The notes below the pieces were generated by a model that saw nothing but the letters and a program-made list of their open reading frames with translations, had not been told where the DNA came from and did no database searches. Shown here piece by piece: positions 1 through 43,307 of a stretch of DNA of 64,000 nucleotides (positions are counted from its first letter, which is position 1; each line of letters opens with the position of its first letter). Origin of the DNA: Nitrospirota bacterium (lineage in GTDB: Bacteria > Nitrospirota > Thermodesulfovibrionia > Thermodesulfovibrionales > Dissulfurispiraceae). The position numbers and the translations under genes were made by a program. Location of the stretch: NCBI GenBank assembly GCA_009773415.1, contig WSNO01000008.1, positions 9,600 to 73,599 on the forward strand, written 5' to 3'.

Positions 1-1
1 C

Positions 2-649
2 ATTTACTCCTCGGAGCGCTTCCGGCAGTGGGATCTCTTTGTGCTTGATCTCAAGACCATGCGGGAAAAACATATCCGCACAGCCCGCGGCCTCACTATT
101 GCCGGCAACTTCTTTCCCGACAGCCGCCGCTTCGTCTTTTCGATATCGCATGACGGCAGTTCAGGCATATACACGGGCGACAGCGTTAGCGGTCAGGTGC
201 AGAAAATTGCGTCTTCGCCGTGGATTGATGTATCGCCCGCAGTTTCTCCGGACGGGAAAAGCATTGCTTTTGTCTCTAACCGATCAGGCGGGCCGCAGGT
301 TTTTCTTTCTGACGCTTCAGGCTATTCTGTCCGCCGCGTGACCTATCAGGGAGGGTACAACACCGCCCCCGCGTGGTCGCCTGCCGGAGACCTCATTGCC
401 TATTCCGGACTTGCCGGAGGAGGGCACCAGATTTTCGTGATGAAAACTGACGGTTCGGGAGTGACACAGCTCACCGACCGCGGCAATAATGAAGAGCCTT
501 CTTTTTCTCCTGACGGCAGATACATTGCTTTCATGTCTGACCGTGACGGTGCCAAAGGGATTTATCTGATGCGCTTCAATGGTGAGGGGCAGATGAGAAT
601 TACTCCCCGCGGCATCAAGGCAACCAGCCCGAGCTGGTCGCCGAACTAA
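2..649 (+). CDS. tolB: TolB C-terminal beta-propeller domain (5' partial, continues upstream of window)
   Basis: The frame is open from nt 2. It shows repeated TolB-type blades (SPDGKSIAFVSNRSG, AWSPAGD, PSFSPDGRYIAFMSDRDG, PSWSPN). Confidence 0.85.
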   Translation: MYSSERFRQWDLFVLDLKTMREKHIRTARGLTIAGNFFPDSRRFVFSISHDGSSGIYTGDSVSGQVQKIASSPWIDVSPAVSPDGKSIAFVSNRSGGPQVFLSDASGYSVRRVTYQGGYNTAPAWSPAGDLIAYSGLAGGGHQIFVMKTDGSGVTQLTDRGNNEEPSFSPDGRYIAFMSDRDGAKGIYLMRFNGEGQMRITPRGIKATSPSWSPN

Positions 650-661
650 TTTCGTATCTAC

Positions 662-695
662 AAAAAGAAGCAGGGCGCGGATTTCTCCGCGCCCC
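662..695. terminator. GC-rich hairpin between convergent tolB and the rhodanese gene
   Basis: GGGCGCGGA-TTTC-TCCGCGCCC forms a 9-bp stem at 673..694. On the minus strand it is followed by TGCTTCTTTTTGT. Confidence 0.55.
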
Positions 696-742
696 GTCTG
701 TGCTGCTGAAACTCTGCTCTCTGCTTCCTGAAGCCTGTTTTG

Positions 743-2101
743 CTACTCCTTGCTGATTTCGTACCGGCCGTGCGGATCGATCTTGATATTGGCGTTCAGG
801 AATGACGCATCGTATCCGGCATTTTTCAACGCATGGTATGCGAGCTCCGCGCGCACGCCGGTCAGGCAATGCACCACGATTTTCTTGTCTTTCGGAATCT
901 CGGCCAGCCGCTTCGGCACATCCTGCGTCGCGATGTTCTTCGCCCCAATCAGCATGCCGTTCTCAGCCTCTTCCGAATCACGGACGTCCAGTATCAGGAC
1001 ATTCTTCGGCTGAGTTTCGGCAATTTTCTTGAACTCCTCAACCGCGATTTCGCCCGGCCGCGGTTTCGGTTCATAGACGATTTTTGTCGGCATATCGCCG
1101 GAAGCTATCGTGTACCCGGCCTTCTTCCACTCCTTGAATCCTCCGTCAAGAACAACGATGTTTGTGAATCCGCCCCAGAAGCTGATCACTTCAAAAGCCT
1201 GAACGGCCGACTGCGTATCATACGAATAGAGAACTATCGGAGCTTTTTTGTCTTTCGGGAACTTGTCCACCGCATGACTCACGTGGGTGAGAGGAATCGA
1301 TATTGCCCCGGGAATATGCGCGGCTTTTGCTTCACTCGCCGGTCTCAAATCGACAATGATGGTGGGGATGTTGAACTTGACACGCTCCGTCAGGCACGGA
1401 ACGCACGCAATGGAAAGCTGCCCGGCCTGTTTCCACGCCGGTAAACCGTCAACATAGACCTTTACATTGGTATAACCGAGTTTCTCCGCCTTCCTGGCAG
1501 AGGATGGGCTCAGTCTTCAGGTGGGGCCGGCGCAGTAAAAGACAAGAGTTTTGTTCTTGTCGGCCGGCAGTTTGTCGATATGTTTGTCGAAGTCTGCGTC
1601 ATAAATATTGATGGCTCCCGGTATAGCACCTTCATAAAAACGGGATGCCGGTCGGGAATCTACAATCAGAGCGCTTCCTTTCTGCACAAGATCGATCATT
1701 TGCGACGTTGATACAAGCTTGTCGGGCGGAACGACTGCGGGCTGTTTGACCGACACCGCTTTTGCATACAGCTCCCCGTTCTTCTCAACATAGGTGACTG
1801 CGATTTCCTTTTCCTTCGGCATCTTGGCAAGCGGCTGGGCCCAACCGCTCAGTTTCGTGTCATCGTCGAATTTCACCGTCCAGATTGCGCCGGTGTTCAC
1901 GGCGAATGTCTCCGCTTTGCCGGAAATACTCCCGATCATCCCGCGCAGCACCTTGTCTGCCGCCGGATGGCACTGAGAGCAGGGCTTCAGAAGCGTCGGC
2001 TTCTGCGGCACCGGTTGCTGGGCAAACGCGGGCGCCGCAAAAAGCACTGCGCCTGCTGTAAACGCCAAAAGCCCCTTGAGAAATACGGAAGGTCTTTTCA
2101 T
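743..2101 (-). CDS. Secreted CXXCH (heme c motif) plus three-rhodanese-domain sulfurtransferase-like protein, read through an in-frame TGA (1517..1519) as candidate selenocysteine
   Basis: Track ORFs 1517..2185 and 743..1348 share one frame and are separated by a single TGA; the downstream ORF only begins at a TTG. The ATG at 2101 has a GGAGGA RBS. Other marks are a signal peptide (AFA|QQ), CSQCH at 1967..1981, and FYCAGPT-TGA-RLSPSSARKAEKLGYTNVKVYVDGLPAWKQAG. The third domain carries HCLTGVR. Confidence 0.6.
1476..1513 (-). promoter_or_regulatory. Candidate bacterial SECIS-like hairpin just 3' of the in-frame TGA
   Basis: The mRNA reads UGA-AGA-CUGAG-CCCAUC-CUCUGCC-AGGAA-GGCGGAG-AAA-CUCGG. 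This gives a 5-bp lower stem, an internal loop, a 7-bp upper stem and a G-containing apical loop 22-26 nt after the UGA. Confidence 0.45.
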
Positions 2102-2180
2102 AGGCTTAAATCCTCCTTTTTTGCATTGTGCATAGATAATATCTATATTTATAGCACATTTCAAAATTAATAAATGTATA

Positions 2181-2196
2181 AGCAATTCTTATGCCG
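2181..2196 (-). promoter_or_regulatory. Sigma-54 (-24/-12) promoter for the rhodanese gene
   Basis: The minus strand reads CGGCAT-AAGAA-TTGCT with GG-N10-GC spacing, about 80 nt upstream of the ATG at 2101. It is divergent from a sigma-54 activator gene. Confidence 0.6.
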
Positions 2197-2232
2197 AACA
2201 TAATGTGGCATCGAAGTTGATTACATAACCGG

Positions 2233-3702
2233 ATGAACAAGGAAATATCAGTGAGAAAACAGAACATGTTCATAACAGGGAGCGTTAAAATGTTAACTGA
2301 TGTGTTAATATTTGGCATGAAGCAGTTAACGGTGAACAATGCGCCCGATCTCTTCAACAACGCCGGTTTTTTGAACAGCGTCATCGAAGCAATGTCCGAC
2401 GGACTCATGATTATCGACACTGACAGCACCATTCTTTTTTTCAACCGCGCCGCTGAAAACATCACGGGCTTTCGTCGTGAGGACGTTATCGGTCAAAAAT
2501 GCACGATGATCGACAGCGCCGTATGCAGCAAAAAAGTGAATTCCGGCAATCAGACAAAGTGCACGCTTTTTGAAAGCGGCAGCATTACTAAAATGCGCTG
2601 TCAGCTTCGGGCCGGTGACGGGCGCGAAATACAGCTCCTGAAGAACGCCGTGCTCCTGAAAAACTCCGACGGAGAAGTCATCGGTGCGGTCGAAGTAATG
2701 ACTGACGTTACATCTGTTTACGAGAAAGATCGCGAAATCGAACAGCTCAAGAGTGAACTGATGCAGGAATACGGGTTTATGGGACTTATCGGCACCAGCC
2801 TGCCCATGCAGCGCATGTTTGAGCAGATTCGCAATGCCGCGGCGAGCGAGGCTCCCATCGTAATCACGGGCGAGAGCGGTACCGGCAAAGAACTGGTGGC
2901 TCGCGCCGTGCATCGTCTCAGCCGTCGGCAGACGGGTCCGTTTGTGACGATCAACTGTGCCGCGCTGAATGAATTTCTTCTGGAGAGCGAGCTTTTTGGT
3001 CATGTCAAAGGCGCTTTTACCGGCGCAGTGCGCGACAGGCAGGGACGGTTCGAAGCGGCGCTGCACGGCAGCTTGTTCCTTGATGAAGTGGGCGACATGC
3101 CGCTCTCCATGCAGGTAAAGCTGCTTCGCGTGCTGCAGGAGCGGGAGATTGAGCGGGTCGGCGATCAGCGGACTATAAAGGTCGATGTCCGTTTGATGAG
3201 TGCAACGAACAGAAACATGGAAGAGTTGCTCGGTGCAGGAAAATTCCGCGAAGATCTCTTCTACCGCATCAATGTTATTCCGATTCATGTTCCGCCGCTC
3301 CGTGAACGCATCGAAGACGTTCCGCTCCTGATAAATCACCACCTGGAGCGGATCAATCAAATCAACAGGAAAGTCATTCATCATGTCAGTCCGAAGGCGC
3401 TTGAGTCGATAGAATCCTATTCATGGCCCGGCAATGTTCGCCAGTTGATCAACATGATCGAATATGCGACCATGACTGCAAAAGGAGACTCCATCGAACT
3501 GAGCGACCTCCCGGAATACCTCTTCAGACAAAAAGGGCCGGAGGCATCTCCTGCTCAAGCCGGAAGAGAACGCATCAGCAAAGCCAGGCTCGTCGCAGCC
3601 CTTGAACGTTTCGGGGGGAGCCGCACCCTGACAGCCCGGCATCTTGGCATCAGTCGCGTTACTCTGTGGAAGCTCATTAAAGAATTGAAAGTTGCGGTAT
3701 AA
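2233..3702 (+). CDS. PAS-domain sigma-54-dependent transcriptional activator (bEBP; start codon uncertain, 2251 or 2290 also possible)
   Basis: It has a PAS domain ([26 protein letters not shown]), an AAA+ sigma-54 interaction domain ([21 protein letters not shown]) and a C-terminal Fis-type HTH. Confidence 0.9.
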
Positions 3703-3713
3703 GCTGAACTGTT

Positions 3714-3737
3714 GCGGGGAGGGCAAGCCCTCCCCGC
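3714..3737. terminator. Hairpin between the convergent activator and beta-barrel genes
   Basis: GCGGGGAGGG-CAAG-CCCTCCCCGC forms a 10-bp GC stem. There is no clear U-tract. Confidence 0.5.
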
Positions 3738-3747
3738 AGGTTACTTC

Positions 3748-5334
3748 TCAGAACTGCACGTCAAAGGTAGCGTAAATATTCTGGGCTTTCTTCAGCGGCT
3801 GGAACATCTGCGGAGCGTACATGGTGGTGGTGAGGTCCGTAATCTTTACAGGCGCCCCCACCCAGTTGTTGCTGCCGGTGTAGTCAAAATCATAGTACTG
3901 GTAGCCTACCCGGAAGAATGCCTTGCCGAGCTTCGATACCGGCTTCTTCAGCAGTTCCTGGATGGCATAAATCTCGTATACACTGCCGCGGGTTCCGAGC
4001 TTGCTGGTCCACATGTCGTCAGATGCAGGGGTGAATGTGATCCAGTTTTTGGAGCCATGATTGTACTCAACGCCAATCTTGGTGCCGGTTGACGGAATAT
4101 CATACCGCGCGCCGGCATACAGGGCATATCCGGTTCTGGAGTTTCTTCCGGCCACGTTGTCCCACATCAGCCCATACTCAAGCATGCCGGGGAACCCGAT
4201 GATATTGGAATTCGGATGCGTTTTGCTCATGGCGGACGACATAAAGAGATTCAGGTTGCCGGGGCCAAGGTTGTCGATCTTCCCGGAAACAACCGCGCCG
4301 AACTGATCGATGTCGCCAAGGTTCGTGTTGCTGAGCGTGCCGAAGCCCGGGAACGTCATTGCAGAGAATTCCGGGAATGCAAAAATATCAAACCCTCTGC
4401 TGTACTGAACCTCTACCCGGAAGTTGTCGGTTTCGTAAGGAACAACATTGAAGCCAAGAAAATTGACATCCTTCATGCTATTTGCAGAACTCCTGAAGCC
4501 GCTGTCAAAACCCTTGCCGTAACACAGCTTCGCATAGAAGCCCGGCAGTGCATCAATGTCGGGGGCGACACCGAACGTAGCACCATCGAAGGCATAGTCG
4601 ATCAGAAGCCCCGGCACTCCTGCCGAGCCTGTCTTCTGGTTGTTCAGCCGAAGATTCGTCGGCACCCCGCCGGTCGACGGACGGCGTCCCACCGAGAACC
4701 AGATCGGCTGGTCTGCAATGTTGCTCCACGTCGCATATGCCTGATCTACCCGCAAGGCATTGTCGGACGGCGTGTGGGCTACGTTGCCGTCAAAGATACT
4801 CTGCTTGTCCGCAAAAAACGAATTTGCCCCCGACACAGGGCCACCGGTTTCATGTCCCCAGACCTTGTACATGAGCAGGCGTGTCTTCACCTGAATGTCC
4901 TCGGTCGCCTTGAACTTCATGTTCAGCCCGAGCCGGTTCGTCAAAAGCGCCTCGTTCTTGAACTTCTCTGATGGAACAAGAACAGGGGGAAGACCAAAGG
5001 GATTGACCGGGTTCGGTGTGAAGAAATCTGCTGATGTGCCGCTCATGTAGTCAAACCGTGTCCGGAAGTCTCCCCCAATCTCAAACCATGCAGGCCATCC
5101 CCCTGCCGACTCCTCTGTTTTCTTTTCCACTGCTGCGGTTTTCTTCTCGACGTTTCCAATCCGCTCTTCTTTTACGGTTTCTTTCTTCTGCAGCTCTCCC
5201 ATCTGCTGCTTTAACTGCTGCAGCTGCTGGGAAAGTTCTTCGATCTTCTTCATCAGGTCCGCCTGGTCCGCTGCCCACGTCGTGGCAGGTGCCAGGAGGA
5301 ACAGAGAAAGAAGCATCGCCATAGCTTTGCTCAT
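3748..5334 (-). CDS. Outer-membrane beta-barrel/porin-like protein with N-terminal coiled coil (resembles DUF3373-type proteins, from memory)
   Basis: It has a signal peptide (TTWA|AD) and a Q/K/E coiled coil. Alternating aromatic beta-strand patterns and a C-terminal ...YATFDVQF are typical of OMP barrels. A GGAGGTG RBS precedes the start. Confidence 0.7.
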   Translation of the reverse strand: MSKAMAMLLSLFLLAPATTWAADQADLMKKIEELSQQLQQLKQQMGELQKKETVKEERIGNVEKKTAAVEKKTEESAGGWPAWFEIGGDFRTRFDYMSGTSADFFTPNPVNPFGLPPVLVPSEKFKNEALLTNRLGLNMKFKATEDIQVKTRLLMYKVWGHETGGPVSGANSFFADKQSIFDGNVAHTPSDNALRVDQAYATWSNIADQPIWFSVGRRPSTGGVPTNLRLNNQKTGSAGVPGLLIDYAFDGATFGVAPDIDALPGFYAKLCYGKGFDSGFRSSANSMKDVNFLGFNVVPYETDNFRVEVQYSRGFDIFAFPEFSAMTFPGFGTLSNTNLGDIDQFGAVVSGKIDNLGPGNLNLFMSSAMSKTHPNSNIIGFPGMLEYGLMWDNVAGRNSRTGYALYAGARYDIPSTGTKIGVEYNHGSKNWITFTPASDDMWTSKLGTRGSVYEIYAIQELLKKPVSKLGKAFFRVGYQYYDFDYTGSNNWVGAPVKITDLTTTMYAPQMFQPLKKAQNIYATFDVQF

Positions 5335-5397
5335 ACCGCACCTCCATACAAGAATCCACCCGCAAAATGCAGGGTTGTATAATTTAAGGCATAGTAT

Positions 5398-5413
5398 AGC
5401 AAGTGCTGTGCCT
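5398..5413 (-). promoter_or_regulatory. Sigma-54 (-24/-12) promoter for the beta-barrel gene
   Basis: The minus strand reads AGGCAC-AGCAC-TTGCT with GG-N10-GC spacing, about 65 nt upstream of the ATG at 5334. Confidence 0.65.
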
Positions 5414-5597
5414 TGGAAAATGCATTTCTGCCAGAGGCTTGTTGCATTGATTCATAAGCGAAATTGCTATCATCAACAAGGCTGAGCAGAGCAGAATTGT
5501 TAACTGCTTAACATTAATTAACTGTGTCCGCTATAAGCAAAGCTCCGCATCCGCAGTTTCCGCCTGAATAACTGCATGTGGTATTATTTTGGGCAGT

Positions 5598-7325
5598 ATG
5601 GGAAAGAAGACTGTCCGGCACCACCTGCCGGTAAAGACACTCCGGGATATCCTTACGCCGCATGTCATTACTCTTGCGCCCGACGCCTGCGCGGATGAAG
5701 CAATTACTATCATGCGCAAACGACGGATCAGCTGCATTGTCGTCACGGAGCAGCAGCAGCCCGTCGGCATCTTCACGGAGCGAAACCTGGTCGATGCAGC
5801 ACACCGTGCGGTCGACTTCGCCGGCACGAATATGCGGGCGCTCATGAGTTCGCCGGTTGTTACTGCGCCCAGTTCGACAACTATTTACGACGCGTTCAAT
5901 CTTTTTTCACTGAAAAAGATCCGTCACCTGGTCGTCGTCAATGCGCAGGGGCATATTTCCGGCGTTATTACGCAGTCTGATCTCATTGCGCATCTCGGCA
6001 TCGAGTATTTTGTCGAAGCAAAAAAAGTCGGCAAAATCATGAACCGTACTGTGCAGAGCATTCCTGCGGGCAGCCTTGTTCGTGACGCGCTTGCGCGGAT
6101 GCATGCCGGCAAAATGAGCTGCGTCTTCATTGCTGAAAAGAATATTCCGTTCGGCATCCTCACGGAACGGGACATGACCCGTCTCATTTATGAAAAACAT
6201 GATTTGAACAAGACAGTGGTTGAGGAGGTCATGAGCAGCCCGATAAGGACTGTTGCAAGCGATGCGCCCCTGCACGAAGCCATTCAGGCGATGAAGCAGC
6301 ACAGGATTCGCCGACTGGGAGTTACTGCCGGCGACGGCATGCTGACCGGAGTGATTACGCAATCCGACATCGTCAGGGGTATGGAAGGGCGTTATACTGA
6401 GTCGCTGCGGGAGATTGTCCGGGAAAAAGAAGAGCAGCTTCAGGCTGCGCTCAGCAGCTTCCGCGAGAAGTCCGCCTACCTTGACAGTATCATGCGATCA
6501 TCAACTGACAGCGCCATCATTGCTACCGACATCAAAATGACCGTTAAGTACTGCAATCCGGCGGCCGAACAGATGCTCGAAATCAGGGCAAATGACATGA
6601 TTGGAGAGAGAATCCAGAACATCGCGCAAAAGGGCATCGACCATAATTGCCTCGTCCTGGCGTTTGATGCGGTGAAGCGGAATGAAGAGTATCAATTTTC
6701 GATTCAGCACTCAGCCAACGCTCGCTCCCGCTCGCTGGAGTGCCGGGTTTCGGGCATCAGGACGCCTGAGCACGTTCTGGCCGGATATGTCCTCATCCTG
6801 CGTGACGTTACCGAACGCCGGCAGCTCGAGGAGCAGCTCACGATGGCGGCAACAATAGACAAGCTGACCGGCGCTTTCAATCGCCACACATTCGAGGATC
6901 TGCTCGACCGGGAACGCTCCCGCGCGCAACGCCATAAATCAGCCCTCTCGCTGATTATGGCCGACATCGATCATTTCAAAAAAATCAACGATACCCATGG
7001 GCATCAGACCGGAGACAAGGTGCTGCAATCAGTTGCGGACATCATCAGGCAAAGCATTCGGCGCTCCGACATGCTTGGCCGATGGGGCGGCGAAGAGTTC
7101 ATGATTCTTGCGCCGGAAACTACGGCCGTCAATGCAACCGCACTGGCCGAAAAGCTCCGCCGGAATGCTGAGGACTGCGAGTTTCCGCTTTTTAACCGCG
7201 TAACGATCAGCATGGGCGTCACAGCGCTTCAGCATGACGATTCCGTTGAAACCCTGATTGCCCGTGTTGATGCTGCGCTGTATGATGCCAAACACAACGG
7301 TCGCAACCGTGTTGAGGCAAGATAG
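5598..7325 (+). CDS. CBS-pair x2 / PAS / GGDEF diguanylate cyclase
   Basis: It has four CBS repeats, a PAS domain, an intact GGEEF motif and an RRSD I-site 5 residues upstream (RRSDMLGRWGGEEF). The track ORF starts at TTG 5589; the first ATG is at 5598. Confidence 0.88.
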   Translation: MGKKTVRHHLPVKTLRDILTPHVITLAPDACADEAITIMRKRRISCIVVTEQQQPVGIFTERNLVDAAHRAVDFAGTNMRALMSSPVVTAPSSTTIYDAFNLFSLKKIRHLVVVNAQGHISGVITQSDLIAHLGIEYFVEAKKVGKIMNRTVQSIPAGSLVRDALARMHAGKMSCVFIAEKNIPFGILTERDMTRLIYEKHDLNKTVVEEVMSSPIRTVASDAPLHEAIQAMKQHRIRRLGVTAGDGMLTGVITQSDIVRGMEGRYTESLREIVREKEEQLQAALSSFREKSAYLDSIMRSSTDSAIIATDIKMTVKYCNPAAEQMLEIRANDMIGERIQNIAQKGIDHNCLVLAFDAVKRNEEYQFSIQHSANARSRSLECRVSGIRTPEHVLAGYVLILRDVTERRQLEEQLTMAATIDKLTGAFNRHTFEDLLDRERSRAQRHKSALSLIMADIDHFKKINDTHGHQTGDKVLQSVADIIRQSIRRSDMLGRWGGEEFMILAPETTAVNATALAEKLRRNAEDCEFPLFNRVTISMGVTALQHDDSVETLIARVDAALYDAKHNGRNRVEAR

Positions 7326-7419
7326 CGACTTGACGCATATTCAACCGTGGCCGGCCATTGCTGTTCTGGTGCTATCTGTTCTGGTGCTATAATGTAGCAG
7401 TGATTCAGGGAGAAGAACC

Positions 7420-9933
7420 GTGACAATCCGCTCCGTCAAAACATGGCTGACGCATATAGCAATAACGCTCTTCGCGATCACGATTTGCCTCTGCATTGCA
7501 GCACTCCTGATTCTGAACAGTCCCACCGTGCTGAATGCGGTCGCCGGCATATTCGGTTATGAAGTGCATGCCGAGAGCGCCTCTTTTTCACCGCTGTTCT
7601 CAGGAGAAATCAAAAACCTCTCGGTAAAAAAAGCGGGCGGCGATGAATTCACGCTTCTTTGCGAGAATGTGAATGTAAAAAATGCGCTCGATCTTATGCT
7701 CAAAGGAAATATTGATGCGCTGATTCTCGAAAAACCGAAACTCTCCTTCCGTATCGGCAAGAAAAAAAGCGACTTCTCTTTTCTGAACAAGCTGCCGGAT
7801 ATTCGCCTTCTTGATATCCGGAATGCCGAGGCAGTGCTCACATTTGAAGGCAATGAGCAGAAAGTGACGCTGAACTCCTTCAGCTTCACGCTCAAAAACT
7901 TTTCGCCGAAGCGCGGCGGAGAACTTGCGCTTGATTCAGCATTCTCTTTTGCCGACAGCCCGAGAAAAGAGCTTTCCGCTTCGGGGCAACTCAAAGCCGC
8001 CTTCAAGCTTGCCGGAGCATTCCCCCCGTACGGAACGGGAACGGCTGACCTCATGATTGACAATGCGTCGTATATGCTCGATGGAAAAAAATCGGCGGTA
8101 AGCGCACTGAAACTGACCGCCGACATGACATTTGATCGGAAAACCGAAACATTCACGCTTCGTTCGCTGAAAGGAACAAGCAGGCAGTTCGGCACTATTG
8201 GGGGAACAGCGCACGCGGTTCTGCGAGGCGACAACCCGTGGTCGGCTGCGCTCGCTGTTACGTCCATAGATTTTTCCCAGGCCTTCGCCGTCGCCTCACC
8301 GGTGCTGCCGGAGGAATACCGAACATGGACCATGCAGGGCAAGGGCGCTGTCGAGACAAGCCTAAGCGGCACCTATGCAAAGGAGCAGCTTGCAATGCAG
8401 GGAACGCTCACCTTTAATTTCAATGAAGCCGGCTTCAGTTCGCCCGATGCGGCAAAGGCTGCCCAGGGGGTCAGCGGCAAAGTCGTACTGAAACTGCAGT
8501 ACGGTCCGCAGGAGCAGAAAATTGCTTTTTCCGGCCAGGCTGAGCTTGCAGGGGGAGAATACCTCTGGGGGAAATTTTACAGCAATCTCGCAGGAAGAAG
8601 AGCAGGTCTGACCGCGGAGGGCTCTTTTTTTTTGAGCGAAAAACGACTCCAATTCTCTTCGACTGCAGATTTTTTCGGGATAGCAACCGCCGCACTTTCC
8701 TTTGACGGCACCGCTTCCGGCTGGAAAGCAGAGATAACCAATGCGGCAATTCGCAACGACCTCGCCGTCAGCCTTCTGCTGAAGGATTTTCTGGAAACTG
8801 CCAGCCCAACTTTGAAGGGTCTTTCTGTGGCAGGCGCAGCAACCATTTCTGCACAGATTGAGCGATCAACCGCCGGCACCTCCGTCAGAGGGATGCTGAA
8901 TATGCGAGACGCGTCGGTTCTGGTCCCCGGACGCGAGTTGTCGGTTGAGAAGGTTTCGATGCATCTGCCGCTCTGGCTGCTCCTGACCCCTGACGGCAAA
9001 ACGGTTCAGCACCCCGGTGAAAGCGAAAAGGGAACCGTCGAGATTTCCGGATTTCAGAAGGGAAAACTGAAGATAGCTAACATCACGGTTCCCCTGACCA
9101 TCAGCCGGAATTATATTCGCATTGCAGAACCGGTTTCTGTGCCGCTCTTTGGAGGCTCCTTCGTACTGTATCGCCTGGGGGTTGACGATATTCCGCATCC
9201 TTCCGTCGGCTTCCGCCTTGGCGTCCGGATTGAGAGTGTTGATCTGGGGCAGCTTACGTCAGAACTTTTCGACAACGAGTATGCCGGAACTATTTTTGCG
9301 GACACCGGCATTCTCCGCTATCGCAACGAACGGCTGGAAGGGGACGGTCAGTTTCTTGTCCGCGTATTCGGAGGAGAAATTTCATTTGAGGACTTCTTTT
9401 TCGATAAAATGTTTTCCTCCGGGCGCAGCTATGGAGGAACCGTTGTATTCTCTGCCATCAGCCTTGAGCAGGTGACACAGAAAATTCCGGTGGGACATAT
9501 GACCGGGATCATTCAGGGCTCGCTCAGAAATTTTGTGATGGAGTACGGCCAGCCGGCAAGTTTTGATCTTGATGTCCGGTCGGTTGATACAAGAGGCGTA
9601 AAGCAGAGGATCAGCATGGATGCTATAGAGAGCATCACCGTGCTCGGCACCGGCGTCAGGACCTCCGTGAAGGGAGGGCTGACATCTCTTTTCCGGGACT
9701 TTCCGTACAGCAAAATCGGGCTGAAGTGTTCACTTCGCAACGACGTGTTCATCATAAGGGGAACGGTTCAGTCCGGGGGAAAGGAATATATTGTCAAACG
9801 CGGATGGCTGCGCGGCGTCGACGTCATCAACCAGAACCCGGACAACAGAATCAGCTTTCAGGACATGCAGGAGCGTCTTGAGCGCATCATGAAGTCAGAA
9901 GGAGTCTCTCCGGGCATTCCCGAGGTGAAATGA
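7420..9933 (+). CDS. Large membrane-anchored AsmA-like / YdbH-like protein (putative intermembrane lipid transport)
   Basis: 837 aa with a single N-terminal TM helix and a long beta-rich body. It lies immediately upstream of a clear YdbL homolog, as in the E. coli ydbH-ynbE-ydbL operon. GTG start with a GGGAGAAG RBS. Confidence 0.6.
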   Translation: MTIRSVKTWLTHIAITLFAITICLCIAALLILNSPTVLNAVAGIFGYEVHAESASFSPLFSGEIKNLSVKKAGGDEFTLLCENVNVKNALDLMLKGNIDALILEKPKLSFRIGKKKSDFSFLNKLPDIRLLDIRNAEAVLTFEGNEQKVTLNSFSFTLKNFSPKRGGELALDSAFSFADSPRKELSASGQLKAAFKLAGAFPPYGTGTADLMIDNASYMLDGKKSAVSALKLTADMTFDRKTETFTLRSLKGTSRQFGTIGGTAHAVLRGDNPWSAALAVTSIDFSQAFAVASPVLPEEYRTWTMQGKGAVETSLSGTYAKEQLAMQGTLTFNFNEAGFSSPDAAKAAQGVSGKVVLKLQYGPQEQKIAFSGQAELAGGEYLWGKFYSNLAGRRAGLTAEGSFFLSEKRLQFSSTADFFGIATAALSFDGTASGWKAEITNAAIRNDLAVSLLLKDFLETASPTLKGLSVAGAATISAQIERSTAGTSVRGMLNMRDASVLVPGRELSVEKVSMHLPLWLLLTPDGKTVQHPGESEKGTVEISGFQKGKLKIANITVPLTISRNYIRIAEPVSVPLFGGSFVLYRLGVDDIPHPSVGFRLGVRIESVDLGQLTSELFDNEYAGTIFADTGILRYRNERLEGDGQFLVRVFGGEISFEDFFFDKMFSSGRSYGGTVVFSAISLEQVTQKIPVGHMTGIIQGSLRNFVMEYGQPASFDLDVRSVDTRGVKQRISMDAIESITVLGTGVRTSVKGGLTSLFRDFPYSKIGLKCSLRNDVFIIRGTVQSGGKEYIVKRGWLRGVDVINQNPDNRISFQDMQERLERIMKSEGVSPGIPEVK

Positions 9934-16675: not shown

Positions 16676-18001
16676 TTACTGCTTTACCTGAAACACTTCA
16701 GTGCCGAGCAGAATGACCGCAACTGCCGCAAGCACCGCTTTTGCCGTTGCCGCGGTAAAGCCGATGACGAATGCCTTGCCGCCGGCCTTGCGCAGGTCTT
16801 CAAACGCAATGTTTAAACCGACGCCGGCAAACCCGATTGCAAAGAACACCTTCAGAAGCTCTCTGCCGAGAATGTTTTTCTGTTCAGTAGAGAACACGCC
16901 CATTTCGTTAAGCGTAACCATCACAAAGAACCCGAGAATAAAGACCGGGAACTTGTCCTTGATAACCTGCCATGCGTTCAGTTTCTGTCCGGCTGCTTTA
17001 CCTGCTGCAGTTGCAGGCTTGATAACGTAGAAGTAAATTGCCCAAATAACGACGAGCGGAATGAACCCGACGCGCACAATGTTGATGATATTGGCGGTCA
17101 GCAGCGCTTCATGCCCGTACCACGATGCCGCGGCGACAAGCTGCGCGGTATTCAGAATAGCCGTCCCGACCCATGCGCCGAAGACCGGCTGCGACATGCC
17201 GAGCGCCTGCCCGATATACGGAAAGGTAAACAGACAGAGCGTGCCGAAGAGAAGAATCGTGCCTATTGCGTAAAAAAAGTCACGCGGCTTGGCATTGACG
17301 ACCGGGGCCGCCGCCACCGCTGCAGACACTCCGCAAACGCCGACGCCTGCACCCATAACACCTGCCAACCCATCATCGATATTCGACTTTCGCCCCCAGT
17401 ACGAAATGAGGATCTGGGTTCCCATGACAAACGCGATAACCAGAGCAAGCCCAAAGGCTCCGACCTTCAGAACATCGGACCACAAGTAAAATGCCCCGAG
17501 AATAACGATGCCGGGTTTAATGATTGGCCGCGCCGCAATGGTTCCTGCCTGGAAGATTTTCGGCAATCCGATGGTATTCCGTACAAACATGCCGCCGAGC
17601 AGAAGCACGGCAACGTAGGTCAGCTGAAACTGCAGCACCCGTTCGCCAACAGTGTATTTGAAGGGCATTTCCTTGGTCAGGGCAAGCTGTTCATAGTCCT
17701 CTTTCGGAAGAACCGTTGAGCGGCGGGGCTTCTGCTTCGCCTTGCCCTCTTCGAATTCCTTCATTTTTGCCTTGAAGCTCTCATCCTTTTTTGCCATGTA
17801 TTCTGCAAAAGGCAGAATGGGTTTCCCTTCTTTTTCCGCCTTTAGTATTACCGCTGCCTCTTTCTGGTTGCTTGCCCAGACACTGGTCATCTCATCCCAC
17901 TGAAGTGCCAGCCAGCCGAGCATAACGCACAGCAACAGACCGGGCAACATCTTGGGAAGCGACTTGAGACTGAAATCTACGCCAATACCTCCGCCTGCCA
18001 T
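16676..18001 (-). CDS. YeiH/UPF0324-family membrane transporter (putative sulfate-exporter family) with an extra hydrophilic loop after TM1
   Basis: GAGVGVCGVSAAVAAAPVVNA, LNTAQLVAAA and GLNIAFEDLRKAGGKAF align with E. coli YeiH (GAGSSICGAAAVLATEPVVKA, HEVAQVVAAG, GLTTHVSALKKAGAKP). Confidence 0.8.
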   Translation of the reverse strand: MAGGGIGVDFSLKSLPKMLPGLLLCVMLGWLALQWDEMTSVWASNQKEAAVILKAEKEGKPILPFAEYMAKKDESFKAKMKEFEEGKAKQKPRRSTVLPKEDYEQLALTKEMPFKYTVGERVLQFQLTYVAVLLLGGMFVRNTIGLPKIFQAGTIAARPIIKPGIVILGAFYLWSDVLKVGAFGLALVIAFVMGTQILISYWGRKSNIDDGLAGVMGAGVGVCGVSAAVAAAPVVNAKPRDFFYAIGTILLFGTLCLFTFPYIGQALGMSQPVFGAWVGTAILNTAQLVAAASWYGHEALLTANIINIVRVGFIPLVVIWAIYFYVIKPATAAGKAAGQKLNAWQVIKDKFPVFILGFFVMVTLNEMGVFSTEQKNILGRELLKVFFAIGFAGVGLNIAFEDLRKAGGKAFVIGFTAATAKAVLAAVAVILLGTEVFQVKQ

Positions 18002-18694: not shown

Positions 18695-18710
18695 TGCAAA
18701 TCAGGTGCCA
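18695..18710 (-). promoter_or_regulatory. Sigma-54 (-24/-12) promoter, perfect consensus
   Basis: The minus strand reads TGGCAC-CTGAT-TTGCA, 70 nt upstream of the USP ATG. It sits directly downstream of a sigma-54 response-regulator gene. Confidence 0.8.
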
Positions 18711-18766: not shown

Positions 18767-18811
18767 CCCGATCGGGAACGGTGGAAAGGATTACTGTTCC
18801 CGATCGGGAAC
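18767..18811. promoter_or_regulatory. Two copies of a CCCGATCGGGAAC palindrome (candidate enhancer/UAS; could alternatively fold as a terminator hairpin)
   Basis: The copies are CCCGATCGGGAAC at 18767..18779 and GTTCCCGATCGGGAAC at 18796..18811. Their centres are 32 bp apart, at about -88 and -120 from the predicted start of the sigma-54 promoter. Confidence 0.4.
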
Positions 18812-20167
18812 ATCCTCTATTCCGTAATCTTTCATTTTTTTCCAGAGCACCTTGCGGCTGATACCGAGAAGTTCCGCTGCCTCTTGCTTTTTTCCGGACG
18901 TGTCCTGCAGGGCTTTCAGGATACGCCTCTTTTCGAAACACCGGACGCTCTCCTCAAGCGAAAGGGGCGCTGAACCGCATGCCGACTCCTGCGCTCCCTG
19001 CAGCATTTCATCAGGAAGAACACGCACATCGACAACCCCGTCTTTTGCGAAAATTACGGCGCGCTCGAGGGCATGTTTCAGCTCGCGGACATTTCCGGGG
19101 TAACGATACGACAACAGCATGTCATATGCCTGCGGCGTAACCGCAAGGCTTCCCTTGTTGAACTGCTTTGAAAAGACCCGGACGAAATGGTCGATAAAAT
19201 AAGGGATATCCTCCGGACGTTCGCGCAGCGGCGGAAGCTTGATAGGAACGACATTGATGCGATAAAACAGATCGCTTCGAAAGGTTCCGGCAGCCACGCA
19301 CTCTTTAAGGTTCTTGCCCGAAGCGCAAATAGTACGAACATCGACCGGAATAGGCACATTGCTTCCAAGCCGGGTTACCGTTTTTTCTTCCAGCACGCGC
19401 AGCAGCTTCGGCTGAAGCGCCGGCGGAATATCGGCAATCTCATCGAAAAAAATCGACCCGCCATGTGCAAATTCGAACCTGCCTTTTCTCATTTCATGGG
19501 CCCCGGTAAACGCTCCTTTTTCCGCGCCGAAAAGCTCCGACTCAAACAGATTCTCCGGCATGGCAGCACAATTGATTTTTATAAACGGCTTATCGCTCCG
19601 GCCGCTCAGACCGTGGACAGCATTTGCGACCAGCTCTTTTCCGGTGCCGCTCTCTCCCTGAATCAGAACCGGAACATCAGTTGCTGCAACGGCCGCTGTC
19701 CGGTCGAACACATCCATCATTGCCGGACTTGCCCCGATAAAATCGGCAAACCCTCGCCTCTCTTTCAGGCTTTCACGGAGGCGAAAGACCTCATCTTCCA
19801 GCTTCCGGTATTTCAGATACCGTTCTACCGCGACAATCAGCTCGTCATTTGAAAACGGTTTCGCGATGTAGTCGAATGCGCCTTCCTTGATGGCCTTAAC
19901 CGCATCCCTTACCTCTGCATATGCGGTAATTATGATGACACCAGCATTCGGGGCTTTTTCGCGCGCGACCTCAAGGATTTCAAATCCGCTGCGCCGGGGC
20001 AATTTCAGATCGGTAATAATGAGATCAAAGCGCTCCCGGAGGATCGCATCAATGCCGTGATCCCCGTCCGCGCAGGGAGAAACGGCAAACCCTTGAGAAG
20101 TCAGGAAATGCTGCATGCCGAGCCGCATGGAAGGCTCATCCTCGATAAGCAGTATCTTTATTTTCAT
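18791..20167 (-). CDS. Sigma-54-dependent response regulator (REC-AAA+-HTH, NtrC family)
   Basis: It has a REC domain (LIITDLKLP), [20 protein letters not shown] and a C-terminal Fis-type HTH. Confidence 0.92.
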   Translation of the reverse strand: MKIKILLIEDEPSMRLGMQHFLTSQGFAVSPCADGDHGIDAILRERFDLIITDLKLPRRSGFEILEVAREKAPNAGVIIITAYAEVRDAVKAIKEGAFDYIAKPFSNDELIVAVERYLKYRKLEDEVFRLRESLKERRGFADFIGASPAMMDVFDRTAAVAATDVPVLIQGESGTGKELVANAVHGLSGRSDKPFIKINCAAMPENLFESELFGAEKGAFTGAHEMRKGRFEFAHGGSIFFDEIADIPPALQPKLLRVLEEKTVTRLGSNVPIPVDVRTICASGKNLKECVAAGTFRSDLFYRINVVPIKLPPLRERPEDIPYFIDHFVRVFSKQFNKGSLAVTPQAYDMLLSYRYPGNVRELKHALERAVIFAKDGVVDVRVLPDEMLQGAQESACGSAPLSLEESVRCFEKRRILKALQDTSGKKQEAAELLGISRKVLWKKMKDYGIEDVPDREQ

Positions 20168-21765
20168 GGAGCTGTCGGGAATTTCACCAGAAAAACCGTG
20201 CCTTCCGATGATGTTTTTACTTCAATAGTCCCGCGATGCTGTTCAATGATAGCCTTGCTGACCGTGAGGCCGATTCCCGTTCCCTCCCCGACATCTTTAG
20301 TGGTAAAAAAGGGATCGAAAATGTGTTCCAGGATATCGGGCCGGATGCCTGGACCGGTGTCGGCGACGCTCACGACGCAAAAAGATCCCTCCTGCAGCGA
20401 AGCAACCGTAATGCTCCCCCTTGGCGGCACTGCGTGGATTGCGTTGAGAATAAGATTCAGAAAGACCTGCTCCAGCTTGTTTGCATCTGCCCGAATGCCG
20501 GGAAGATCTTCGGCAAGCTCAGCTTTTAAATGGATCCCCTTTTTCTCAATAATGAAATCAGTGAGCTGCAGAACGTTCTGCACAATCTCTTTCAGTGAAA
20601 CGTTCTGCATCAATAGCGGTGAGTTTTTTGAATAATCAAGCAACTGCCGCACAATTGTCTGGATGCGGTCCAGCCCGTCGTTCACCAATCGAATGTGCTC
20701 CTCGCGCGTCTGCTCATCCATCGGCGTCTTGAGCAGATTATTGAAGCACAGCTTGATACCGCCGAGCGGGTTGTTGATTTCGTGAGCCACTCCTGCCGAC
20801 AGCTGCCCAAGTGCGGCCAGCTTCTCGGTCTGCATCATCTGTTTTTCAAGGGCTGCGGCGGCCCGCACTTTTTCCTGCGCATCATGGAGGTGCTGGGCAA
20901 GCATGTTGAATGACGCTGTGAGGTTGCCTATCTCGTCAGGCCGGTCCGCGGGACGCTCCGCACGCAAAGGCTCCTTCCCGTCGGCAATATTTCTGAAGGT
21001 GCGAGAAAGTTTGTACAGCGGCTTGCTGACCAGCAGACGAAATGTGACATACAGACCTGAAAACAGCGCCGTAAGCGCCAGAAGTCCGAACAAAAACGTA
21101 TCGAAAGCAAATTTCCTTACCTGGGCGAACGCAACGTCGAGAGGGATTGCGACCGACTCGACGCCGACGACCGCATCAGCTTTCCAGCCGAACATTGAGC
21201 CGTCTCCGTAGAGCTTCCGCACGGTCTTCGGGATAGTGGCTGAACTGCCGTGGCACCAGAGACAGCTGACATCGGATATGACGGGGCGAACCGACATGAG
21301 CATGTCCCGGCCGCCTGCCGTTTCGATTCCCTGCCACAGGAGAATCTTGGGGTTCTCGTTGAAATGCCGGATCATCCTGCTTTCAAAATCGTTTGCCTTG
21401 TTGGCAGGGTTCAGCGGAGAGTCCGAGGTGCGGCGAAACTGATATTCGGGAAGATCCTTGTTAAAGCGCCGCATTACCTGCTGGGTAACATGCGTGGTGG
21501 ACATCGCTTCGATGACGAATTCCTCTTCAGATTTCGACTCGCGGAGAAGTTGATACATTTTCGGACGCAGGGTATCCCGAACGTACCCCCCGAGAGCTTT
21601 CGTGTGAGACATGATTATCTGGGTTTTGTCCTTGGCGTCCTGAACTGCCTGCTGCTTGAGATAGAAATAGAGCGAAATCGAAAGCACGGCACAAACCACG
21701 AACAGCAATCCGCCCATTGCAAGACTGAACTTGAAACCGAGGCTGTACCCCAGGCGCTTTAACAT
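20164..21765 (-). CDS. Sensor histidine kinase with periplasmic CXXCH heme-type sensor domain (DUF3365-like), HAMP, HisKA, HATPase
   Basis: TM1 is followed by a ~180-aa loop containing CLWCH (21250..21264), then TM2, HAMP, the H-box (SAGVAHEINNPL) and the N/G boxes. A 4-nt ATGA overlap links it to the regulator gene. Confidence 0.9.
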   Translation of the reverse strand: MLKRLGYSLGFKFSLAMGGLLFVVCAVLSISLYFYLKQQAVQDAKDKTQIIMSHTKALGGYVRDTLRPKMYQLLRESKSEEEFVIEAMSTTHVTQQVMRRFNKDLPEYQFRRTSDSPLNPANKANDFESRMIRHFNENPKILLWQGIETAGGRDMLMSVRPVISDVSCLWCHGSSATIPKTVRKLYGDGSMFGWKADAVVGVESVAIPLDVAFAQVRKFAFDTFLFGLLALTALFSGLYVTFRLLVSKPLYKLSRTFRNIADGKEPLRAERPADRPDEIGNLTASFNMLAQHLHDAQEKVRAAAALEKQMMQTEKLAALGQLSAGVAHEINNPLGGIKLCFNNLLKTPMDEQTREEHIRLVNDGLDRIQTIVRQLLDYSKNSPLLMQNVSLKEIVQNVLQLTDFIIEKKGIHLKAELAEDLPGIRADANKLEQVFLNLILNAIHAVPPRGSITVASLQEGSFCVVSVADTGPGIRPDILEHIFDPFFTTKDVGEGTGIGLTVSKAIIEQHRGTIEVKTSSEGTVFLVKFPTAP

Positions 21766-42831: not shown

Positions 42832-42848
42832 TGGCATGAAGTTTGCAT
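42832..42848 (+). promoter_or_regulatory. Sigma-54 (-24/-12) promoter
   Basis: TGGCAT-GAAGT-TTGCAT with GG-N10-GC spacing lies 65 nt upstream of the ATG at 42913. It is directly downstream of the sigma-54 regulator gene. Confidence 0.75.
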
Positions 42849-42912
42849 AATTCAACCGTGCTAATATTTTGGGGCAAGCATACATTCCAAAAATAAAGGA
42901 GGTGAATACCAA

Positions 42913-43221
42913 ATGAAAAAGATTATCGCTCTGTTCGTGGCAGTGCTTTTTGCTCTCTCCGTTACCGCAGCTTTCGCAGCTGACGCGGCAAAACCGGCAA
43001 CTCCGGCAACTCCGGCAAAGGCTGACGAGAAGAAGGCCGAGCCGAAGAAGGACATGAAGGCCGACGAGAAGAAGGCTGAGAAAAAAGCCAAGGCCGACAA
43101 AAAGAAGGCTGAGAAAAAGGCCAAGAAGGACGCAAAAAAGGCTGAGGAGAAGAAGGACGCTCCGAAGGCTGAACCGAAGAAGGCCGAACCGGCAAAGCCT
43201 GCTGAACCGGCAAAGAAGTAA
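42913..43221 (+). CDS. Secreted low-complexity Lys/Ala/Glu-rich protein
   Basis: It has an AAGGAGGTG RBS, a signal peptide (AAFA|AD) and then (KKAE/KKAK)n repeats. Confidence 0.65.
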   Translation: MKKIIALFVAVLFALSVTAAFAADAAKPATPATPAKADEKKAEPKKDMKADEKKAEKKAKADKKKAEKKAKKDAKKAEEKKDAPKAEPKKAEPAKPAEPAKK

Positions 43222-43246
43222 TAATTCTTTTCTGCTTGATGTTTCC

Positions 43247-43276
43247 GAGAGGGCAGATGTAACCATCTGCCCTCTC
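43247..43276 (+). terminator. Hairpin after the K/A/E-rich gene (possible attenuating terminator)
   Basis: GAGAGGGCAGATG-TAAC-CATCTGCCCTCTC forms a 13-bp stem, followed by TTCATATGAATTTTT. Confidence 0.55.
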
Positions 43277-43307
43277 TTCATATGAATTTTTCGTACGGAG
43301 GAATCTG

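Follow-up and report, generated by a model that had tools for sequence, protein, structure and literature searches.

In Geobacter, a rhodanese lipoprotein (ExtH) and a porin (ExtI) have been studied experimentally, and their genes lie beside that of MccSep, a polysulfide reductase containing selenocysteine (Sec) and haem (PMC5877670, PMC6148476, PMC13510729). The ext cluster of G. sulfurreducens also holds ExtJ, a small periplasmic protein of ~104 residues, and ExtKL, which is MccSep, a Sec-containing c-type cytochrome; the cluster has been connected with polysulfide respiration and with reducing selenite as well as tellurite (PMC5877670, PMC6148476, PMC13510729). MccSep is a periplasmic pentahaem selenoenzyme that reduces polysulfide via a haem-ligating Cys and Sec, and TsdA and SoxAX likewise use c-type haem together with a conserved Cys and/or Sec in polysulfide or thiosulfate chemistry (PMC13510729). 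Here, we describe a stretch of 64,000 nucleotides from a Nitrospirota bacterium (contig WSNO01000008.1; the window below) in which a three-gene island encodes a periplasmic haem-c/triple-rhodanese selenoprotein (the haem-rhodanese), an outer-membrane protein of the DUF3373 family, and a PAS-domain bacterial enhancer-binding protein (bEBP) of the sigma-54 type. We propose, with a probability of roughly 0.6, that the three genes constitute a co-regulated module that takes up sulfane sulfur and processes it in the periplasm.

Among systems examined by experiment, the island is closest to ExtH/ExtI, which likewise pairs a rhodanese-family protein of ~49 kDa with an outer-membrane porin, but the window differs from it in every component family and in regulation. 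ExtI belongs to the phosphate-selective porins of Pfam (PF07396), whereas the barrel of the window is DUF3373 and gives no PF07396 match at E <= 0.01. ExtH, compared here by its published description only, is a lipoprotein, whereas the window rhodanese lacks a lipobox and has an ordinary signal peptide. The window protein unites haem, Sec, and rhodanese in a single chain, whereas ExtH and MccSep are separate proteins, and the ext regulator is LysR-type (PMC6148476) whereas that of the window is a sigma-54 bEBP. The statement of an earlier reading, made from the sequence alone (the sequence-only reading), that no characterised system of this composition was known is too strong in view of Geobacter ExtH/ExtI beside MccSep (PMC5877670, PMC6148476, PMC13510729). 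No sequence or fold homology to MccSep, TsdA, or SoxAX was detected, and the window protein carries one haem motif on a beta-rich domain of unknown fold; by analogy, Cys190 and Sec195 beside the haem domain could work like the corresponding residues of these enzymes, with haem ligation by Cys or Sec being pure conjecture.

A further characterised analogue is the Sud-Psr system of Wolinella succinogenes. In Wolinella (Sud/PsrABC) and in Aquifex (SbdP), a periplasmic protein of rhodanese fold carries sulfane sulfur to a Psr-type molybdoenzyme, and homologues of the window protein resemble Sud-PsrABC in that they sit inside psrABC/phsABC-like operons. Sud (1qxn) matches rhodanese domain 3 of the window protein (E 1.3e-5) but forms a homodimer of single-domain subunits and contains neither haem nor Sec. 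The window protein, by contrast, comprises three rhodanese domains, a haem domain, and a C-x4-Sec pair, with no psr genes within 64 kb. The best sequence and fold matches are the multi-rhodanese proteins 1yt8 of P. aeruginosa (E 2e-32, three matched rhodanese stretches) and YnjE of E. coli (E 1e-11), a periplasmic protein with three rhodanese domains; both lack an N-terminal CXXCH domain and a Sec or C-x4-C pair, and overall template modelling (TM) scores to them are low (0.2-0.28) because the domain arrangement differs.

Rhodanese selenoproteins have already been catalogued, among them forms 1-5, of which form 1 has the 'UxxS' pattern, and TsoB with 'UxxxxU', where Sec stands at both positions corresponding to C190 and U195 of the window protein (PMC13188914, PMC9312934). 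The window T-U-R-L-S fits the 'UxxS' pattern of form 1 as a likeness of pattern only, and C-x4-U has the spacing of U-x4-U in TsoB, a rhodanese/DsbD-fusion selenoprotein (PMC13188914), pointing by analogy to a redox pair. The NCBIfam cut-offs are missed for TsoB (NF045694, 68.6 versus 805 bits) and for NF041203 ('CxU', 89.5 versus 115 bits), none of the catalogued rhodanese selenoprotein entries examined mentions a haem domain or a triple-rhodanese architecture, and our literature search found no paper describing a haem-rhodanese fusion. On the regulatory side, FisR is a sigma-54-dependent activator of sulfide-oxidation genes that responds to sulfide/persulfide (PMC7315123). Like the predicted role of the window bEBP, FisR is divergently encoded and activates a sigma-54 promoter of sulfur-metabolism genes; unlike FisR, the window bEBP would sense through a PAS domain with the cysteine pattern C-x7-C-x11-C-x12-C.

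The haem-rhodanese selenoprotein

The host is a sulfur-disproportionating-type Nitrospirota bacterium, and the best matches to the window are metagenome-assembled genomes (MAGs) of Dissulfurispiraceae (Nitrospirota, Thermodesulfovibrionia); protein-level identity to locus L003 is 94-95%, and an identical DUF3373 protein occurs on contigs from two metagenomes. The island occupies window positions 671-5522 and is bounded by the 3' end of tolB (41-649) on one side and by a gene for a CBS-PAS-GGDEF protein (5589-7325) on the other, with the haem-rhodanese, bEBP, and DUF3373 genes on the minus, plus, and minus strands, respectively (Table 1). A GGAGG ribosome-binding site precedes each of the haem-rhodanese and DUF3373 genes. 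One terminator-like hairpin lies 3' of the haem-rhodanese gene, between it and the convergent tolB; this one and the hairpin that separates the bEBP and DUF3373 genes are the two strongest such sites in window positions 1-8000 and bracket the transcription units. The three genes, two sigma-54-like promoters, shared upstream motif, and flanking hairpins of the sequence-only reading were all recovered, in place or a few bases off. Gene structure, Sec/Cys pair and selenocysteine insertion sequence (SECIS), promoters and enhancers, folds, and neighbourhoods were computed. Homologous loci were surveyed in other genomes with a 10-sequence alignment as the query, a 28-sequence family alignment being too diverse; the survey covers 80 loci (81 for the comparison of the TGA codon; labels L001 onward), and its counts are phylogenetically non-independent, with roughly one independent event per phylum.

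The reading frame of the haem-rhodanese gene is continuous with a single interruption, an in-frame TGA, at which gene callers split it into products of 194 and 201-256 residues. A signal peptide is present on this protein as on DUF3373, which bears out the claim that both structural products are exported. The haem motif follows the signal peptide in 78 of the 80 loci, in some as CX4CH, and the three lipobox-like matches are chance occurrences. In an alignment of the window protein with 102 full-length homologues (103 sequences), conservation is 96% or higher for each of C41/C44/H45, C190, U/C195, and HC412xTGVR. An exported protein with CSQCH has the motif of a c-type cytochrome, to which haem is predicted to be attached. 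Pfam Rhodanese (PF00581) matches in three stretches (E 3.9e-49); domain 2 is without Cys, and the loop HC412LTGVR417 of domain 3 has the sequence expected of a catalytically active rhodanese.

Across the 81 loci, the codon of column 195 is TGA in 37 and Cys in 42 but never TAA or TAG, and the TGA-type loci belong to Nitrospirota, Desulfarculaceae, the cultured Desulfosediminicola, and other lineages. A SECIS-like hairpin begins 17 nt after the UGA and contains a G in its apical loop. Over the same codons, the upper stem forms on average 6.5 of its 7 pairs in genes of the Sec type but 4.2 in those of the Cys type, and the minimum free energies of the two types differ (p = 1.4e-5, from phylogenetically non-independent sequences). 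The upper helix is 94% paired, three of its pairs show double changes, shifted registers collapse, and the covariation score is reached by none of 500 shuffles. An Rfam scan of window 1-8000 at E <= 5 returned no SECIS or other RNA family, only a chance match to a viral pseudoknot. Sec/Cys pair and SECIS together establish Sec195 at the level that computation allows, and with the almost invariant CXXCH they uphold the description of the protein as a (seleno)rhodanese with a haem-c motif. Since half of the family has Cys instead, Sec is a catalytic option and no marker of substrate. The sequence-only reading had spoken of sulfur/selenium handling; sulfur is the better-supported substrate, Sec indicating catalysis rather than a selenium substrate.

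No tRNA gene, and hence no tRNA-Sec, lies within the 64-kb window. In a related Dissulfurispiraceae genome (L008, 5395-8076), the bEBP gene is flanked by an FdhA-like molybdoenzyme in two open reading frames (ORFs), probably owing to a Sec codon, which suggests that the lineage decodes Sec. This molybdoenzyme had been taken as Psr-like; being FdhA-like, it was dropped from the count of Psr-like neighbours. A moaC gene follows the bEBP gene in L006 and L008 (by Pfam) and in L004 and L005 (by ORF clustering).

Structure prediction was performed on P0008, a Cys-type homologue, with a predicted local distance difference test (pLDDT) score of 87.7. The model consists of a beta-rich domain of ~80 residues after the CXXCH, followed by three rhodanese domains, and searches by fold and sequence returned multi-rhodanese proteins only (1yt8, YnjE, EanB, and weakly Sud). 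K119 is invariant in the N-terminal haem domain. A phmmer search with the haem domain alone against 1.84 billion representatives gave 31 matches, essentially family members and Sec-truncated fragments, and no new architectures. Two variations within the family were noted besides. The linker that joins rhodanese domain 1 to domain 2 contains a CxxC (C233-V-P-C236, window 1394-1405) in the window protein and several of its closest relatives, while the wider family mostly has Ala and Leu there. Six proteins of 370-383 residues (P0046, P0052, P0060, P0064, P0073, and P0081), several of them from Dissulfurispiraceae, are ~50% identical over the rhodanese part and mostly keep the C-x4-C-R loop but have no CXXCH domain; from their sequences they look like a haem-less sister form.

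Table 1. Positions of the features of the island in the window
Feature	Position	Strand	Remarks
Intrinsic-terminator-like hairpin	671..696	minus	11 bp, 9 GC, then T-run CTTCTTTTTG
Periplasmic haem-c/triple-rhodanese selenoprotein gene	743..2101	minus	452 codons including Sec195; stop codon 743-745
Canonical rhodanese active-site loop H-C412-L-T-G-V-R417, domain 3	851..871	minus	C412 101/103, G415 103/103, R417 102/103 homologues
Rhodanese domain 1, ~residues 133-225, with C190-A-G-P-T-U195 pair (C-x4-Sec)	1427..1705	minus	C190 in 101/103 homologues
SECIS-like stem-loop	1474..1515	minus	-19.8 kcal/mol; 7-bp upper stem 1496-1502/1484-1490, loop AGGAA 1491-1495
In-frame TGA, selenocysteine 195	1517..1519	minus	Column 195 Cys in 99/103 homologues
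CSQCH haem-c motif, residues 41-45	1967..1981	minus	C41 102/103, C44 103/103, H45 103/103 homologues
Signal peptide, residues 1-27 (AAPAFA/QQ), no lipobox	2021..2101	minus	From sequence and family N-termini
Sigma-54-type promoter of haem-rhodanese gene (CGGCAT-N5-TTGCT), CGGCATAAGAATTGCT	2181..2196	minus	GG-N10-GC
Enhancer (upstream activating sequence) array, TTAAC/GTTAA repeats	2284..2330		Core 2284-2308, ~90-110 bp upstream of haem-rhodanese promoter
PAS/AAA+ sigma-54 activator/Fis-type helix-turn-helix protein (bEBP), probable start	2317..3702	plus	Longest ORF from 2233
Bidirectional terminator-like hairpin	3712..3739	plus	12 bp, 9 GC; between convergent bEBP and DUF3373 genes
DUF3373 outer-membrane protein, 528 residues, signal peptide	3748..5334	minus	PF11853 E 1.5e-145
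Cys271 of DUF3373	4522..4524	minus	Cys in 141/141 sequences
Sigma-54-type promoter of DUF3373 gene (AGGCAC-N5-TTGCT), AGGCACAGCACTTGCT	5398..5413	minus	GG-N10-GC
Second TTAAC/GTTAA enhancer array	5500..5522		~90-110 bp upstream of DUF3373 promoter

The DUF3373 protein, the activator, and the promoters

The PF11853 match of the outer-membrane protein spans positions 2-409 of the 409-position profile. Its AlphaFold2 model, of moderate confidence (pLDDT 71.6, predicted TM score 0.72), has a helix of ~50 residues (26-76) followed by a porin-like beta-barrel of ~18 strands, in keeping with the porin-like barrel of the sequence-only reading. Foldseek matches the barrel to OmpF, MOMP, AlgE, and the stalked porin OmpM1 (E ~1e-12, TM up to 0.67). 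The modelled barrel has a porin fold and is predicted to be a channel, in agreement with the listing of DUF3373 in TCDB as 1.B.62, a putative porin (PMC4827864). The invariant Cys271 lies in a conserved K-x-C-x-G-x-G-x3-G context, and in 128 of the 141 sequences it is the sole Cys beyond residue 30. No paper giving a function for DUF3373 was found in the literature; a comparative proteome of Dissulfuribacter lists a DUF3373 protein under a thiosulfate-disproportionation condition (PMC13490349).

The activator consists of PAS, Sigma54_activat (PF00158, E 3e-71), AAA_lid_14, and HTH_8 (E 3e-10) domains and contains GAFTGA, and no NCBIfam regulator model reaches its cut-off. Its start probably lies within 2290-2332, with the best fit to the orthologues at M29 (2317), the position at which these start, right beside the array. 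A GGAG is found 7 nt 5' of the ATG at 2290. A start at 2233 is unlikely because the enhancer array would then fall inside the bEBP ORF, and the conservation of 'LTDVLIF' in 2233-2332 probably reflects the DNA motif GTTAA. Four PAS cysteines (C90, C98, C110, and C123 in the 489-residue numbering; codons at 2500, 2524, 2560, and 2599) recur in every orthologue, at identities as low as 48%, making the PAS domain a candidate redox, Fe-S, or persulfide sensor.

Arrays of the form TTAAC-N3-8-TTAAC occur in the 64 kb at 2284-2308 and 5500-5522 only, that is, upstream of the two promoters; four matches compare with 0.13 expected, and none of 100 shuffles reaches four. Such an array precedes the haem-rhodanese gene in seven of the eight loci with a PAS-bEBP neighbour versus none of the 70 without one, and GG-N10-GC precedes it in 8/8 versus 2/70. 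Promoter and array also precede DUF3373 in L003, L084, and L086, the last of which adjoins a bEBP gene of 64% identity. In L083, the array is present with a weaker GG-N10-GC that was missed by the strict pattern and found by eye. Promoter footprinting and an array that tracks the bEBP subfamily thus support the co-induction by a single PAS activator envisaged in the sequence-only reading, and we infer from these sequence patterns a two-promoter sigma-54 regulon driven by the adjacent PAS-bEBP.

Further sigma-54-like sites were observed elsewhere in the window. A perfect sigma-54 consensus, TGGCACCTGATTTGCA, lies at 18695-18710 on the minus strand, just downstream of a histidine-kinase/sigma-54 response-regulator pair (21765..18791) and upstream of a universal-stress-protein-like gene (recognised by eye) and a 441-residue membrane protein (16676-18001). 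On the plus strand, within 42832-43637, the sigma-54-like site TGGCATGAAGTTTGCA directly follows a second sigma-54 response regulator (41374-42765) and precedes two small secreted proteins, one Lys/Ala-rich of 102 residues (42913-43221) and one of 109 residues (43308-43637). The latter resembles by eye the small DUF3373-associated family described below, without its terminal Cys. Beyond the GGDEF gene that bounds the island, window 7420-9933 encodes an 837-residue protein with an N-terminal membrane anchor and no precomputed Pfam family on record; it also adjoins the GGDEF gene in L001, and a similar-sized protein of 846 residues without Pfam matches has a comparable position beside DUF3373 in L083.

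Neighbourhoods in other genomes

The full trio beside tolB was found only in close relatives (L001-L003 and L083, DUF3373 85% identical). The synteny of the three genes, which the sequence-only reading had proposed as a check, holds among these and not beyond them, where more distant relatives keep pairs: rhodanese and bEBP, rhodanese and DUF3373, or bEBP and DUF3373. The haem-rhodanese gene with a divergent PAS-bEBP gene, for example, is found in Thermodesulfovibrionia (L004-L008) and Desulfarculaceae (L077, L082).

The gene order in Desulfuromonadales runs from DUF3373 through a periplasmic protein of 107 residues with the C-terminus KKTAGC to the haem-rhodanese, a PhsA-like molybdoenzyme (518 bits, exported by the twin-arginine pathway), NrfD, and an iron-sulfur (FeS) protein. 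An octahaem cytochrome related to Shewanella octahaem tetrathionate reductase (OTR; 1sp3, E 6e-23) sometimes stands between the haem-rhodanese and the molybdoenzyme. In Betaproteobacteria and in L056, which is annotated as an uncultured delta proteobacterium and in which the FeS gene was not detected, a molybdoenzyme, FeS, and NrfD are followed by the haem-rhodanese, the spacing between genes being 15-417 bp. The locus of Candidatus Geothrix odensensis (L074) has DUF3373, psrABC-like genes, the haem-rhodanese, and a response-regulator bEBP. In all, the family lies in a Psr/Phs-like cluster in ~26 of the 80 loci (Betaproteobacteria, Desulfuromonadales, Geothrix, and Thermodesulfovibrio), and DUF3373 lies within 10 kb of the haem-rhodanese in 21 of the 80 (23 with contig-edge matches), in conserved order, in Desulfuromonadales and Geothrix; the two genes are arranged differently in the window lineage. 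These PhsA/PsrABC-like clusters and the linkage to DUF3373 outside the window lineage lend support to the envelope sulfur role that the sequence-only reading had put forward as a possibility.

DUF3373 genes were also found with other partners. In L084 and L086, DUF3373 occurs with a small Cys-terminal protein and heads operons for 9-haem and other multihaem cytochromes. In a gammaproteobacterial MAG (L087, 519-8662), DUF3373 and the small Cys-terminal protein stand directly after dsrLJOPN-like genes, where dsrL, dsrJ, dsrO, dsrP, and dsrN were called from Pfam domains and lengths; this context would tie the DUF3373 family to oxidative sulfur metabolism too. In Dissulfurispira thermophila (L085, 7001-9545) and in L088 (7001-9703), the DUF3373 gene stands under a sigma-70-like promoter, lacks a TTAAC array, and precedes genes for a periplasmic thioredoxin/AhpC-like protein and a Cys-terminal lipoprotein (NLMAC and NYLEC).

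The small Cys-terminal proteins form a periplasmic family of ~105-110 residues with a signal peptide, a small beta-rich body, and an end of (K/R)xAGC or RPGC, for which there is no Pfam or NCBIfam match. The family adjoins DUF3373 in Desulfuromonadales, Nitrospirota, and one gammaproteobacterium (sites in L043-L081, e.g., L044 5607-5930; L084 8631-8960; L086 8627-8956; L087 6553-6867) and is not found in the window: among its ORFs of 60 codons or more, the sole match to a Gly-Cys end is spurious and ends in GCG. The C-terminal Cys suggests a SoxY-like sulfur carrier. A relationship of the small protein to the N-terminal haem domain was considered and rejected (hhalign probability 18%).

A proposed sulfane-sulfur module and its alternatives

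According to the sulfane-sulfur reading, the adjacent cytoplasmic bEBP would switch on both promoters, and the two exported proteins would act in series in the envelope, first the DUF3373 channel and then the soluble haem-rhodanese. Soluble zero-valent or sulfane sulfur (polysulfide, thiosulfate, or tetrathionate; S0-derived) would pass the outer membrane through DUF3373, a putative porin-like channel that would extend a coiled-coil stalk into the periplasm and that has a single invariant Cys. The second protein is predicted to bear covalent haem c, a Cys190-x4-Sec195 pair active in redox chemistry, a domain 2 devoid of Cys, and a persulfide-carrying Cys412; its rhodanese domains would capture this sulfur as protein persulfide or selenosulfide, which would then be handed on, or reductively released with the haem as electron relay, to respiratory or disproportionation enzymes. 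In other lineages, Psr/Phs-type molybdoenzymes and OTR-like octahaem cytochromes are encoded in the cluster itself; in the host, the acceptor enzymes would be encoded elsewhere in the genome. The parts of this scheme that we infer are that haem is attached, which substrate is handled, in which direction sulfur and electrons flow, and which signal is sensed.

A number of observations weigh against this scheme. Genes for the partners, whether Psr/Phs, OTR-like, or small Cys-terminal, are absent from the 64-kb window, which therefore provides no acceptor for the host, and tblastn of the window with Psr-like, FeS, NrfD, OTR-like, small-protein, and 9-haem cytochrome queries returned nothing. The N-terminal haem domain has no match in Pfam, PDB sequence, or fold searches and no conserved Met or His as distal ligand in the 103-sequence alignment, and the structural model is that of a homologue (P0008) 51% identical to the window protein, not of that protein itself. 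Most Nitrospirota homologues (L010-L033) have neither DUF3373 nor a bEBP gene nearby, and the occurrence of DUF3373 in various further settings means that its role as a channel may be more general. Sigma-54-like matches in the window are at chance level (36 found versus 37.7 expected), so the two sites rest on position and conservation, and all regulation of the island is a prediction.

The alternatives differ mainly in what the exported pair would handle. It is unlikely that the island serves the uptake, reduction, or detoxification of selenium or tellurium oxyanions, with the porin admitting selenite, the rhodanese forming a perselenide, and the haem reducing it; such a role would be like that suggested for ExtI/ExtH of Geobacter. 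Deletion of ExtI, of which ExtH is the rhodanese partner, does impair reduction of both selenite and tellurite (PMC5877670, PMC6148476), in vitro MccSep reduces selenite as well (PMC13510729), and rhodanese domain 1 has weak NCBIfam matches to the rhodanese domains of selenouridine synthases; against this, the physiological role assigned to MccSep is sulfur respiration (PMC13510729), DUF3373 is non-homologous to ExtI (PF07396), half of the haem-rhodanese family has Cys and not Sec, and the neighbours are PhsA/Psr-like and OTR-like, with no selenium-specific gene recognised among those examined. We regard as similarly improbable a role in thiol, persulfide, or redox homeostasis of the periplasm as an envelope stress response, in which DUF3373 would be a general porin and the haem-rhodanese would remove or repair persulfides and disulfides on envelope proteins. 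The thioredoxin/AhpC-like proteins and Cys-terminal lipoproteins that follow a sigma-70-type DUF3373 gene in Dissulfurispira thermophila and one other genome would suit such a role, as would the extra CxxC of the close clade (residues 233-236) and the C-x4-U spacing, which also occurs in a DsbD-fusion selenoprotein (PMC13188914). However, the family is tightly embedded in respiratory Psr/Phs-like operons, where gaps measure 15-160 bp, and a pathway that responds to its substrate is where dedicated control through sigma-54 and an enhancer is more typically seen.

The 9-haem and other multihaem cytochrome operons headed by DUF3373 in L084 and L086, together with the first description of the ext clusters as putative conduits (PMC6148476), would fit an outer-membrane conduit for extracellular electron transfer formed by DUF3373 and cytochromes, in which the rhodanese domains are incidental. 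We consider this improbable to a greater degree: the modelled barrel has ~18 strands, like the diffusion porins OmpF, AlgE, and OmpM, as against the 26 strands of MtrB-type sheaths; the window protein has a single haem; and sulfur chemistry is favoured by the conservation of three rhodanese domains with their catalytic Cys/Sec intact. That the genes are adjacent by chance and form no functional unit, with the TGA a genuine stop in a split gene or pseudogene, is hardly credible. Gene callers do split the rhodanese gene, and the trio is confined to close relatives, but the TGA is kept in 37 loci of several phyla with a conserved downstream frame, Cys stands there in the rest, the hairpin is maintained only in TGA-type genes, the enhancer is common and unique to both promoters, and the pairs recur independently in other phyla. 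None of these explanations fits the neighbourhood data as well as a sulfane-sulfur module does.

How insoluble S0 and polysulfide are activated and cross the outer membrane in respiration, oxidation, and especially disproportionation is an open question. The outer-membrane route for polysulfide is unknown according to the authors of the MccSep study (PMC13510729), and the first step in disproportionators is called undeciphered in two papers on such organisms (PMC8780430, PMC10045233). The island names three co-regulated and widespread candidates: a porin family with a single invariant Cys; a haem-rhodanese with a Sec/Cys redox pair, embedded in Psr/Phs operons of several phyla; and a Cys-rich PAS sigma-54 sensor that comes with a defined DNA motif. 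Because Geomonas, Geobacter sp. OR-1, Geothrix, and Desulfosediminicola are carriers in culture, genetics and biochemistry can be brought to bear directly on the hypothesis. A bolder form of the sulfane-sulfur reading, which we hold to be doubtful, would make the haem-rhodanese the first of a new class of haem-dependent sulfane-sulfur oxidoreductases in which the Cys190-Sec195 selenenylsulfide is cycled by the covalently bound haem and possibly ligates or adjoins it, DUF3373 a dedicated channel for polysulfide or S0 with a Cys thiol relay running from the outer-membrane Cys to a Cys-terminal periplasmic carrier and on to the rhodanese, and the sigma-54 activator with its four-Cys PAS domain the sensor of sulfane sulfur that turns both on. 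If true, this would be the long-sought entry step of elemental sulfur in sulfur-disproportionating and sulfur-respiring bacteria.

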